Part shown: in pieces, positions 9,001 through 12,000 of the stretch
Layout: every line of letters begins with the position of its first letter
Position numbering within the stretch: the stretch's first letter is position 1
Assembly: GCF_003018255.1 (NCBI RefSeq)
Contig: NZ_CP027441.1
Direction: 5' to 3' (one strand)
From: Escherichia coli
Lineage (GTDB): Bacteria; Pseudomonadota; Gammaproteobacteria; Enterobacterales; Enterobacteriaceae
DNA: 64,000 nucleotides
Position numbers: made by a program

Positions 9001-12000
9001 GCTGGCGATGATTCAGTGCTGAGGGAATGGTGCTGTCTAGTGCGGTGGCGGGGCAGCCAGCGTCAGTTCAAGCTGACGCAACTCCCTGATGGCCAGTCGC
9101 TTCAGATGGTCATCGGAACAAAAATAGGCTTCATCCGGCGGCAGACGCTTCCTGAGATACTCTGCCATCTCATGAATCTGCTGGTCGGCAGGCAGTTTCT
9201 TCAGGCGATTAGCACGCTTGCGGGCTGCAGCTTTCGCCCGACGGTGTTTCAGCGCATCCTGGCTGCGCTGTAGATACCAGCGTTTTCTGGCCGCATGCAC
9301 GGAAATATCTTCGTCCTCACGCAGTACACCTTCCCGGATGAGCTGCTGGCGGATTTCACTTTCACGAAGCCGCTTCTGCTGCTGTTCGTGAAGTTTAACC
9401 ATGTCCACACCCAGCATCTGCCACCCTGCCGGTGTTATCCAGACATAACGCGGCAGACGCTGACGGGTTTCACGGTCCCACATCGTTTCTTCTGATACAC
9501 CCAGCACACCAAAACGCACCTGTTCGGCCAGCAGACGGGAAAGACGGGAGACTGTCACTTCAAGTTCCGGAATAACCTTCCCTTTGCTGTCTTTCGGGCT
9601 GATTTCTTTAGCCAGGCGGGAAACACTCATGCCCACGGTGTGTGTACCGGCATCACTGAAGCTGACCAGAACCGGCCAGATGGTATCGAGGAGGCATTGT
9701 TTTTCCGGCCGGAAAGCATATTTGCGACCGACGAACGTCCGTTTCTGCACGTAAAAAGGATGCCGCGACATACGCATACGCAGGCTCTGCTCGCCGGTCA
9801 CCGGGTCCTTTTTCACCAGACGGTTGTAGGCGTGCCCGAGCTGCCCGCTCAGCGCCTTATAGCGCGCAGGACGATACCAGGACGGATTTTCGCATTTGGG
9901 TTTAGTGGAGTGTTCACCACGACGGCGATTTGTGCGCTTCCTTTCCGGTTCAACCAGAAAAGAGATCGCCCTTCCCGTTTCATAGTCTTCCCAGAAACGG
10001 ATCTGCTCTTCGGGTGCTAACTGACTCCAGTGTACTGCGTTATATGGAGTATTCTTCAGACCTGCCACAAGCTGTCGCTTATGGCGGAGCGATTGTGCCG
10101 TGTATTTATACACTGCACAGGGTTGAATCTCTGGTACGGTTTCATATATACTTATCCCGTATTCGTGATGCCCCCATAATCTTTCTCCGGCCCGCCAAAG
10201 TCAGAGGAAAGTTTATGGGGGTTTCGCCTTTATGGTCTTCTGAAACTTTTTTCAGCCTTCCGGCACCGGCAAACTGCCGTCGTTTCTGCCATACGTCCTG
10301 AATGCCTTATGGCGCATCCTGCCGTTTTCTGACTTTCCGGACCGCGAGGATCCCAAAAGCCACTGAATAACGATCCGCAATATACCCCTTTTCCACCGCT
10401 TTGAAAAGCCGACACGATTTCTCTGATTTACCAGGCCTCTCATTAACCCCCTAAAAAACGTCGTTTTTTTGAACTATGTCAAAAAAATAGACAATTCCAC
10501 AAACGATCTTTTATGCTGTGTTTTTCATCATTTTTAGTAGAAGAGATCGCCTAAAATTTTTAAACGATCTAATCCTCCAGACACCGCACACAAATCAGCA
10601 TAATATGCTGCTTTATCAAATATAACGATCTATTCAACTACTTATCTTCGCTCTTGCCACAGATACATCCTTATGTAATATATTTTCCAGCCATTAATCC
10701 TGTTTGCAGGTTTTGTCGGTTTTCGCCCGCCTCGAAACCGTCCACAAGGCTTACAAGAGTGCGTAAATCATGTGCCTGTCAGAACTGCAGGCCGGGCTGA
10801 ACGAGGGTCAGCCGCTGTTTCCGACACATGCTTTATGTATTCGCCGTTCACAACAACATCGAAGCCCCTCTGCGGGGATCGATTTTCGCGGAGCGTTCCG
10901 GATTTTGAATATCAGTGAATTACATCAACGCAACTGGTATCTGGCTCAGTACATCCCTGCCGGCAAAAACCGCGAACATCTCTTTTCCTGGCTTTCCGAA
11001 CAACACGTCCTTCCCTGGACACCCCTGATACTGAAAAAAGTCCGCCGCACGGATAAAGTCTGCGGTTACCGTCGACATATACACGCCGTGTTTCCCGGTT
11101 ACTTTTTCCTGAAAGCAGACCCCGAACGCCACAGCTTCACTCACCTTCGCCGTCACAGTGCCTTTCTGGACTTCGTGAAAATGGCCGGTGAAATCAAAAC
11201 CGTCAGGGAGGATATCGTTCAGTCTTTGATGAAAGTGTACCCAGATCCTGCGCTCAATCCGGCAGCCAGGGAGGAGCTGGATGCTGCCTCCACCCTCTGG
11301 CTGACAAAAGCGCGTTACCAGTACCTCCTCCGGCTTGATGCACAGCCTCTGCCGGAGTCGAGGATCGCCCTGCTCCTGCACCTGGTATCTGATGACGGAG
11401 CGTTGACATGAAAATTGCTGTCTTAATTTGACGACTTTTCCCGGCCTTTATGGCCGGGATTTTTTTCCCTTCTGTTTCCACAATGCCCGGCACCGGTGAC
11501 ACCTTACGGTGTACGGAGAGCGGCTGTCGGGCATTTTTTCAGGACGCCTTTATGACAATTCTATCCCAGGAAAACCCTGTCATTCTGTTACTGGAGAATA
11601 TGCTCGAAGCACTCTCCACCGCCCCGGACAACATAAACAACGAACGGCGTCGCCGGCGTTACCTGCTGAACTGGCTTGACACTGCCCGTCAGATGCGCGA
11701 GTTCAGAGGAATGGCTGAAGAGTTCACTACCCTGCGAAAACTGCTGGCCACCAGTTCAGACATACCGGTAGCAAACACCCTGAAATCACTGCTGGAAAGT
11801 GGCAATAACGCAGCATTATACGACCTGTACCGCTTCCGCTCGGCTCTTGCCGCGTGCAGAAGTCTGGGATGGCAGATTGGCACGTGCGCATGGAACGACC
11901 AGCTGCTGAGTGAGACACTTTCCCGTGCGCAAACAGGTAAACGTCATATCCTGCAGCTGAACAGTACCAGAGACACCTTTTCCACCACGGGCAGAATGCT

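Follow-up and report, generated by a model that had tools for sequence, protein, structure and literature searches.

A pO113-like IncI-gamma/K1 plasmid of Escherichia coli carries a repY-repZ-type replication control region, with support for a GUG start of the 343-residue initiator

With a probability of about 95%, the minus strand between 9037 and 10420 of the window (the whole 64,000-nucleotide stretch of E. coli contig NZ_CP027441.1 analysed here) is where an I-complex plasmid of the IncI-gamma/K1, pO113 kind has its basic replicon control region. The window itself was identified as a pO113-like IncFIB/IncI-gamma/K1 plasmid of Shiga-toxin-producing E. coli. The copy-number control cassette of IncI-family plasmids is already known and well studied, a textbook case of control by antisense RNA, pseudoknot and leader peptide, and the start codon, leader peptide and RNA element of exactly this sequence are already in RefSeq, UniProt and Rfam. 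The region has the sequence elements, homology, conservation, predicted folds and agreeing annotations described below. Its features are as follows.

9037..10068, minus strand: replication initiator gene repZ/repA, GTG start, 343 aa (ORF and codon scan, PGAP, homology)
10056..10145, minus strand: leader ORF repY (RLP), 29 codons, MKPYQRFNPVQCINTRHNRSAISDSLWQV, from ATG 10145 to TGA 10058-10056, in a frame different from rep
10081..10230, minus strand: match to PK-repZ (RF01087), full-length model, positions 1-150
10171..10221, minus strand: stem-loop I, predicted target of the Inc RNA; UUGGCGG occupies its top loop (MFE and centroid fold)
10193..10198, minus strand: 5'-UUGGCG-3' loop motif, GGCG 10196-10193 being the predicted 5' partner of the pseudoknot (invariant in alignments; role from PMC4705826)
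10083..10087, minus strand: CCGCC, of which CGCC 10086-10083 is the predicted 3' partner of the pseudoknot, just 5' of the weak rep Shine-Dalgarno sequence (SD) (invariant)
10056..10092, minus strand: structure III, inhibitory hairpin burying the GUG (predicted fold)
10094..10119, minus strand: structure II, hairpin within the leader ORF, with GTG 10113 in its stem (predicted fold)
10159..10233, plus strand: putative antisense Inc RNA (RNAI) of about 75 nt, made up of the stem-loop I complement and then a U-rich tail (both ends putative)
10123..10152, plus strand: promoter-like site for the Inc RNA, TTGAAT, 18 nt, TATACT (consensus scan; putative function)
10379..10407, minus strand: promoter-like site for the rep mRNA, TTTTCA, 17 nt, TATATT (consensus scan; putative function)

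Classification of the replicon follows from the RNA and protein models. MOB-suite types it as IncI-gamma/K1, not IncI1. The Rfam covariance model PK-repZ scores 156.5 bits (gathering score 44, E = 3e-36) and is one of only two gathering-level Rfam matches across the whole window, which places the region in the repZ type of the I-complex (IncI/K/B/O/Z). Other marks of that type are present: a short leader ORF whose stop lies close to the rep start, UUGGCG in the loop of stem-loop I, and a predicted structure III over the rep SD and GUG. The initial annotation had likened the control region to both IncI and IncB replicons. The IncI half of this stands. The IncB model PK-repBA (RF01089) reaches 36.9 bits, below its gathering score of 45, so the replicon is of the repZ (IncI) sequence type rather than the pMU720 type; the mechanism class is common to IncB repBA, and the sequence family is different. 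Sub-threshold Rfam matches (PK-repBA and CopA) were left out of the membership decision. The encoded protein belongs to the RepA_IncFII_LM / IncFII_repA initiator family, scoring above the curated cut-offs of both NCBIfam NF040977 (RepA_IncFII_LM; 316 bits, cut-off 70, residues 58-335 of the 343-aa protein) and Pfam PF02387 (IncFII_repA; 24.0 bits, cut-off 22.9).

It had been claimed that the longest ORF, opening at 10113, has no ATG for some 110 codons, that the initiator is instead a 343-aa protein starting at GTG 10068, and that the gene coordinates change accordingly with respect to a naive longest-ORF call; the codon scan and the existing records bear out all three points. The longest minus-strand ORF runs from GTG 10113 to 9037 (358 codons plus stop), and its in-frame start-type codons are GTG 10113 (codon 1), GTG 10068 (codon 16), GTG 9816, GTG 9801 and ATG 9777 (codon 113, the first ATG). 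From GTG 10068 the frame spans 1032 nt, that is, 343 aa and a stop. PGAP places the CDS of WP_000907876.1 at exactly 10068..9037, in a record 100% identical over the region, and a 343-aa CDS at the homologous GTG is annotated in ColIb-P9 (as repA), R64, pO113 and the closest record. A review by a ColIb-P9 author (PMC4705826) likewise has rep starting at a GUG that is masked by a hairpin and opened by a GGCG/CGCC pseudoknot after leader translation (further papers on the system are PMC8053102, PMC7491321 and PMC10724649). The rep SD, about AAGCGA and 6 nt upstream of the GTG, is weak, so the start is not callable from an SD match; nor can protein homology fix the N-terminus, since neither the NCBIfam nor the Pfam profile covers anything before residue 58.

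In five of nine related replicons an in-frame TAA stands 12-14 codons before the GTG and no start codon intervenes, so the 15-codon extension of the longer ORF is unusable there. This comparison of sequences largely refutes an initiator of 358 aa read from GTG 10113 with the 29-codon ORF irrelevant, a reading we regard as highly improbable even though it uses the longest ORF, its exact protein product is deposited from 814 contigs, and MH430881 is annotated from the equivalent start (a 1077-nt CDS). MH430881 is the one 358-aa record whose annotation was inspected; its Prokka-style locus tag points to automated gene calling, not to evidence. Moreover, GTG 10113 lacks an SD and is part of the stem of structure II, the conserved hairpin of the leader ORF; the downstream GUG is the codon chosen by the annotations and literature cited above. 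A GUG start at 10068, giving a 343-aa RepZ, is the assignment that the sequence evidence supports.

The leader ORF was said to comprise 29 codons (10145-10056), to lie in another frame and to end 7 nt after the in-frame GTG. The sequence scan agrees: exactly 7 nt (10065-10059) separate the rep GTG (10068-10066) from the leader TGA, and the two genes overlap by 13 nt. The same overlap appears in the re-annotation of pESBL, with RepY at 36448-36537 and RepZ at 36525-37556. A short ORF of this kind carries little weight by itself, because 2.1 kb of this region contain 37 ORFs of at least 20 aa and 4-mers are likewise frequent, so that such elements are meaningless alone; the significance comes from the PK-repZ match, the fold z-scores and conservation across replicons. 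The leader ORF, which would have been in doubt had related replicons lacked it, has been conserved in each of the 11 sequences under comparison, namely the window and 10 plasmids of the IncI1, IncI-gamma/K1 and IncK2/Z types. Its length and frame are kept in 11/11, one of them, an E. albertii plasmid, with an in-frame 6-nt insertion, and the GTG-7 nt-TGA junction is invariant throughout.

Alignment with ColIb-P9 and R64 (IncI1-alpha), the comparison originally proposed, gives 100% identity from the repY ATG through the rep GTG and its first ~19 codons, or ~56 nt past the GTG. The inc-repY-repZ architecture is the same. The 29-aa leader peptide is identical to RepY of both plasmids, and a deposited entry for exactly this peptide bears the name 'positive regulator for repZ translation / RepY'; RepZ is also 343 aa in ColIb-P9, 95% identical and without gaps. 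The UUGGCG loop, its CGCC partner, structure III and the PK-repZ match are held in common as well. In contrast, stem-loop I has many differences in its stem and upper loop, mostly compensated, and the Inc RNA differs with it; these positions determine incompatibility. Ahead of stem-loop I, the 5'UTR is also of another sequence type.

The two short motifs expected of the mRNA, UUGGCG upstream and CGCC inside the leader, were found at 10198-10193 and 10086-10083. UUGGCG occurs once in the leader; CGCC has a second copy at 10314-10311. The copy at 10086-10083 lies inside the leader ORF, 15 nt upstream of the GTG. Structure prediction of the leader (z = -4.7) recovered both stem-loop I with its UUGGCGG loop and a hairpin pairing CCGCC with the GUG region. 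In this hairpin, structure III, CCGCCAUAAGC (10087-10077) is predicted to pair with GCUUGUGGC-A-GG (10072-10061), with outer pairs extending to the leader UGA. G10068, U10067 and G10066 would pair with U10081, A10082 and C10083, and in this unswitched fold CCGCC would pair with 10066-10061. Besides the window, structure III recurs in the predictions for all 8 other distinct leaders, and its core pairs never vary.

The upper part of stem-loop I aligns unreliably in MAFFT owing to loop indels, with noisy pair counts at columns 35-38 with 51-55, and the sequences were therefore folded separately. Stem-loop I folds in 9/9 aligned replicons, and seven of its stem pairs change on both sides; structure II has three such pairs and is preserved despite the 6-nt loop insertion of the E. 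albertii plasmid. Across stem-loop I and the leader hairpin, then, 10 pairs are altered on both sides, 90% of cells are paired as against 34-44% with partners slid, and the observed score was reached by 0/500 shuffles. Replicons of the repZ type have a constitutive Inc RNA of some 60-75 nt opposite stem-loop I; here the antisense (plus) strand is predicted to form a strong hairpin (z = -6.4). Upstream, both rep mRNA promoter hexamers are invariant in 10 aligned leaders, and the promoter-like sequence for the Inc RNA is conserved in ColIb-P9. Both promoters and the Inc RNA ends are putative assignments from consensus matches. FinO-domain (FopA-like) genes are reported to co-occur with Inc/repZ; in the closest record, the products annotated over the first 50 kb include none so named.

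The pseudoknot between GGCG and CGCC is a prediction from sequence, and its bases, like the structure III core, are invariant in the sample, so that covariation speaks neither for nor against them. One could accordingly propose that GUG 10068 is the start but acts independently, the leader ORF and the GGCG/CGCC complementarity being coincidental here, and chance easily yields a 29-codon ORF and a 4-nt complement. We consider this exceedingly improbable. The cassette is homologous to the experimentally dissected one of ColIb-P9, the leader and junction being identical in the two, and the leader ORF and its stop-to-start spacing are invariant even where the body of Rep has been replaced. Moreover, the PK-repBA consensus pairs a UUGGCC loop with a distal CCGGCC where the window has UUGGCG and CCGCC (the IncB side here being the Rfam model, not pMU720 itself), which reads as a compensatory change between families. 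RNAduplex energies of the loop with the distal site (-15.0 kcal/mol) and with the upstream CGCC site (-13.6 kcal/mol) include flanking pairs and were not used as evidence. A start at the first ATG (9777 or 9771), with a protein of ~246 aa and everything upstream an untranslated leader, deserves almost no credence: ATG is the commonest start codon and none precedes codon 113 of the long ORF, but the RepA_IncFII_LM profile aligns from 40 residues upstream of ATG 9777, variation in codons 6-57 is mostly third-position (8/14 variable sites), as in the remainder of the gene and as is typical of coding sequence, and the N-terminus is collinear with that of ColIb-P9 RepZ and conserved between the two.

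Control by a pseudoknot and translational coupling, as in IncI, had been suggested for this replicon, and the PK-repZ score together with the identity to ColIb-P9 across the leader and junction upholds that suggestion. By analogy with ColIb-P9 (PMC4705826), and transferred through the identical junction, rep expression would depend both on the pseudoknot and on repY being translated and terminated, and Inc RNA would repress it. We infer the order of events, the re-initiation and the Inc RNA ends from the ColIb-P9 experiments. A rep mRNA starting near 10372 would carry stem-loop I (10221-10171), repY (10145-10056) and the initiator gene from GUG 10068. In the resting state the GUG and the weak SD would be buried in structure III, paired with the segment at 10087-10077. 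Structure III would be melted by a ribosome that translates repY and terminates at its UGA (10058-10056); the freed CGCC (10086-10083) could then pair with the GGCG (10196-10193) of the stem-loop I loop. This pseudoknot would keep the site of rep initiation accessible, and re-initiation by the ribosome that has just terminated would follow at GUG 10068. The ~75-nt Inc RNA, from the plus strand at about 10159-10233, would bind the same loop, blocking the pseudoknot first and repY translation later, and in this way would set copy number and incompatibility.

Among the closest known systems is plasmid pO113 of LEE-negative STEC O113:H21 (AY258503 / NC_007365). It encodes the identical RefSeq Rep, WP_000907876.1, from the same 1032-nt CDS (published pO113 repZ, 163918-164949, 1032 nt), and its backbone is similar in kind, combining IncFIB and IncI-gamma/K1 with an IncI-type pil/tra region. 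The two differ by one base in 1384 nt: position 10190, which falls within upper stem-loop I and so within the Inc RNA, is C in the window and A in pO113. The IncK2/Z plasmids (such as pESBL3310, pMbl536 and E. albertii p3RM9976) have a homologous leader (76-91% identity), stem-loop I, the CGCC partner and structure III, with the GTG and leader stop at identical positions. However, the Rep downstream of their leader stop is another, 290-aa IncFII-type RepA (TIGR03474/PRK13750), still read from the same GTG.

The likeness to IncB pMU720 (repB-repA-RNAI) and IncL/M pMU604 lies in the layout of control: antisense RNA against a stem-loop, a coupled leader peptide, re-initiation, and a pseudoknot joining the loop to a site beside the rep ribosome-binding site. 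The IncB sequence itself is divergent. IncFII R1 (copA-tap-repA) also has an antisense RNA acting on a rep-leader stem-loop, leader-peptide coupling and a Rep of the same superfamily. The antisense strand of the window gives a CopA-like Rfam match (10144-10229, plus strand) that at 32.9 bits is sub-threshold (gathering score 60); no activator pseudoknot has been described for R1.

For annotation practice, these results argue for GTG 10068 as the start and for annotating repY, PK-repZ and the Inc RNA. Longest-ORF callers give instead the 358-aa protein, deposited from hundreds of contigs, and omit the 29-codon repY.

Two smaller proposals are, taken jointly, unlikely. An invariant block of the 5'UTR at 10317-10296 (AUGCGCCAUAAGGCAUUCAGGA) contains GCGCCAUAAGG, which nearly repeats the pseudoknot arm CCGCCAUAAGC, and might serve as a second, competing partner of the GGCG loop; the pO113-type variant, for its part, might have its own incompatibility specificity. 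If true, competition by 10317-10296 for the GGCG loop would be an undescribed layer of rep control, and the pO113-type stem-loop I and Inc RNA (including the C/A difference at 10190) would have a specificity distinct from IncI1, IncI-gamma and IncK1, which typing tools lump together.

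On the minus strand, the longest ORF at the rep locus runs from GTG 10113 to a stop at 9039-9037 (358 codons), and the start-type codons in its frame are GTG 10113, GTG 10068, GTG 9816, GTG 9801, and ATG 9777. GTG 10068 is codon 16, giving a rep gene of 1032 nt (343 aa), and ATG 9777, the first ATG, is codon 113, as expected from the initial annotation, which had noted no ATG for ~110 codons. A 29-codon ORF in another frame, repY, extends from ATG 10145 to TGA 10058-10056 and encodes the peptide MKPYQRFNPVQCINTRHNRSAISDSLWQV. The initial annotation had proposed that this ORF, at 10145-10056, closes 7 nt past an in-frame GTG that opens a 343-aa initiator, with UUGGCG upstream and CGCC inside the leader. 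Indeed, the spacing from GTG 10068 to the repY TGA is 7 nt (an overlap of 13 nt between repY and rep), UUGGCG occurs once in the leader (10198-10193), and CGCC lies within the 29-codon ORF at 10086-10083. Because 2.1 kb of this sequence contains 37 ORFs of 20 aa or longer, a 29-codon ORF or a 4-mer has no significance alone; the significance of the leader elements rests on homology and conservation.

Homology places the replicon in the repZ-type I-complex control family, as the pO113/IncI-gamma/K1 subtype. The Rfam covariance model RF01087 (PK-repZ, the repZ regulatory-region pseudoknot) matches 10081-10230 on the minus strand over its full length, at 156.5 bits against a gathering score of 44 (E = 3e-36), and is one of only two gathering-level Rfam matches in the 64-kb window, the other being the sok antitoxin. 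The sok RNA (RF01794; 54801-54958, minus strand, 119.7 bits) indicates a hok/sok-type post-segregational killing locus. The initial annotation had pointed to control of the kind known for IncI/IncB replicons; by sequence type the replicon is not IncB repBA, because PK-repBA scores 36.9 bits, under its gathering score of 45. Protein profiles matching Rep are Pfam IncFII_repA and, at 316 bits, NCBIfam NF040977 ("plasmid replication initiator RepA"). By megablast, 2063 PLSDB plasmids match, the top ones being large E. coli plasmids of type IncFIB plus IncI-gamma/K1.

In ColIb-P9 (NC_002122) and R64 (NC_005014) the initiator is annotated at 455..1486 (343 aa), and both plasmids are 100% identical to the window from the leader ATG through the rep GTG to ~56 nt into rep, the end of the compared stretch. 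The whole Rep is 95% identical to that of ColIb-P9, without gaps. Differences from the two plasmids cluster in stem-loop I (its stem and upper loop), the Inc RNA target in the rep mRNA, and in the 5'UTR upstream of it; the stem-loop I/antisense RNA region specifies incompatibility (PMC10724649). The re-annotated IncI1 plasmid pESBL (RepY 36448-36537, RepZ 36525-37556; PMC4288162) agrees in leader length (29 codons), Rep size (343 aa), and overlap (13 nt). The rep region differs from that of pO113 by a single base in 1384 nt, at 10190 (C in the window, A in pO113), in the upper part of stem-loop I/Inc RNA; in IncK plasmids, single changes there can alter incompatibility (PMC10724649).

The start codon was examined in an alignment of nine leaders, comprising the window and ColIb-P9, a further four IncI1/IncI-gamma/K1 plasmids, and three of IncK2/Z type. 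GTG 10068 is supported as the rep start by four independent lines, among them stop codons upstream of it in related replicons, mosaic replicons, and a coding signature in the Rep N-terminus. The rival GTG 10113 opens the longest ORF, but in five of the nine leaders the rep frame is closed by a TAA 12-14 codons before the GTG, and no start-type codon (ATG, GTG or TTG) separates the two, so that the equivalent of 10113 is unusable in these replicons. On this comparison GTG 10113 is excluded; it also lies within a conserved hairpin stem and lacks an SD. A start at ATG 9777 would cut off conserved sequence, including 40 residues covered by the family profile. Rep residues 1-57 fall outside that profile; third codon positions hold 8 of their 14 variable sites, their variable codons are 7 synonymous versus 6 non-synonymous, and the pattern is similar to that of codons 58-140. 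That leader and pseudoknot are coincidental clashes with the PK-repZ match, the identity to ColIb-P9, and a junction kept invariant even where the Rep body has been swapped.

This swap is seen in the IncK2/Z plasmids (L006, L007, and L008, the last being E. albertii p3RM9976), whose homology to the window extends precisely to the leader stop codon and no further. Downstream they encode a different IncFII-type RepA of 290 aa, whose annotated start is again this GTG, with the GTG-7 nt-TGA spacing intact (GTGGCGGCCCTGA vs GTGGCAGGTCTGA). IncI-type and IncK2/Z replicons thus have a common control region, GTG and 7-nt spacer but different Rep bodies, and the module boundary, an exact recombination junction in the IncK2/Z plasmids, therefore sits at the translational coupling site. 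In L008 the leader ORF has 31 codons, not 29; an in-frame insertion of 6 nt occupies the loop of the intra-leader hairpin and so preserves frame and hairpin alike.

The leader RNA (10235-10040, minus strand) folds at -66.1 kcal/mol (z = -4.7), with stem-loop I and structure III, the inhibitory hairpin over the rep GUG, both predicted.

Predicted structures in the rep leader
10221-10171, minus strand: stem-loop I, with UUUGGCGGG in and around the top loop
10161-10157 with 10139-10135, minus strand: small hairpin with the repY SD and AUG in its loop
10119-10094, minus strand: hairpin inside repY, with GTG 10113 in its stem
10087-10077 (CCGCCAUAAGC) with 10072-10061 (GCUUGUGGC-A-GG), minus strand: structure III

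The small hairpin enclosing the repY SD/AUG is likewise noted in PMC8053102. In the predicted structure III, the GUG start is base-paired (G10068 with U10081, U10067 with A10082, G10066 with C10083), CGCC is matched to 10066-10062, and pairing at the outer end extends to the repY UGA. All nine leaders, folded separately, gave the same fold; 90% of alignment cells were paired, against 34-44% with the partners slid. Ten pairs, seven from stem-loop I and three from the repY hairpin, showed changes in both partners, and none of 500 shuffles reached the covariation score. Covariation is silent on the structure III core and GGCG/CGCC, because these bases are invariant in the aligned set. Between families, the Rfam PK-repBA consensus has loop UUGGCC and distal CCGGCC where this replicon has UUGGCG and CCGCC, the change that a conserved pseudoknot would predict.

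Promoter-like sites occur on both strands.

Promoter-like sites
10123-10152, plus strand: antisense site, TTGAAT at 10123, 18 nt, TATACT ending at 10152
10407-10379, minus strand: rep mRNA site, TTTTCA at 10407, 17 nt, TATATT ending at 10379

Downstream of the plus-strand site comes the complement of stem-loop I, a strong fold (-37.3 kcal/mol, z = -6.4) with UUUCGCCUUUAU after it. These features fit a putative antisense Inc RNA of ~75 nt, roughly 10159-10233, where a CopA-like Rfam match falls below threshold. Both hexamers of the rep mRNA site are invariant in 10/10 aligned leaders. So is a 22-nt 5'UTR block, AUGCGCCAUAAGGCAUUCAGGA (10296-10317, minus strand), across the same number of I-complex leaders, even though the UTR around it is of two divergent sequence types. 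Within the block, GCGCCAUAAGG nearly duplicates the pseudoknot/structure III arm at 10087-10077 and supplies a second copy of CGCCAUAAG; a third CCAUAAAGG lies directly 5' of stem-loop I (10233-10225). We know of no described function for this block.

The initial observation is thus confirmed and its interpretation, pseudoknot-dependent translational coupling, supported. Because the junction sequence is identical, the steps of ColIb-P9 can be applied here. At rest, the weak SD and GUG would be hidden by structure III. A ribosome that translates repY as far as its stop, UGA 10058-10056, would open structure III and expose CGCC, which could then pair with GGCG in the loop of stem-loop I. With the site held open by the pseudoknot, the terminating ribosome would have time to re-initiate at GUG 10068. 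Inc RNA would kiss the same loop, blocking the pseudoknot directly and fast, and a later, more stable Inc RNA complex would cover the repY SD. In Salmonella pCol1B9, FopA, a FinO-domain chaperone, accelerates Inc-repZ pairing (PMC7491321); in the closest annotated record, no product of the first 50 kb is named as a chaperone of this kind.

Several neighboring features were seen. According to the closest annotated record, positions 1-7214 (minus strand), directly adjoining the replicon, encode the contact-dependent inhibition toxin CdiA, truncated at the window edge, together with its ShlB/FhaC-family transporter. On the other side, the intergenic stretch 10420-10770 separates the rep promoter from a divergent NusG-family gene (10770-11411, plus strand) and, judged by its position upstream of repY, appears to be the counterpart of "Hft", a region between traA and repY in pESBL where transposon insertions raise transfer ~20-fold through a mechanism that is unexplained (PMC4288162). 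The window and its best database record, NZ_CP027372.1, are not identical: a handful of SNPs precede ~36.7 kb, and from ~36700 on the two lose register, in keeping with an indel or rearrangement in the tra region.

Both gene models circulate publicly for this exact sequence, the 358-aa protein on 814 contigs and the 343-aa protein on at least 1000. PGAP places repA at exactly 10068..9037 (WP_000907876.1) in a record 100% identical over 9000-10800; pO113, the virulence plasmid carried by LEE-negative STEC O113:H21, encodes the same protein as RepZ, with published coordinates 163918-164949 (1032 nt). MH430881 instead annotates the 1077-nt ORF, under locus tags that look Prokka-generated. Public entries for the identical 29-aa peptide call it "positive regulator for repZ translation / RepY"; the PGAP gene lists of the records inspected do not include it. 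Start, leader peptide, and RNA element are thus already catalogued for this exact sequence, and nothing here is new; the practical point is one of annotation only, namely to take GTG 10068 as the rep start and to add repY, PK-repZ, and the Inc RNA.
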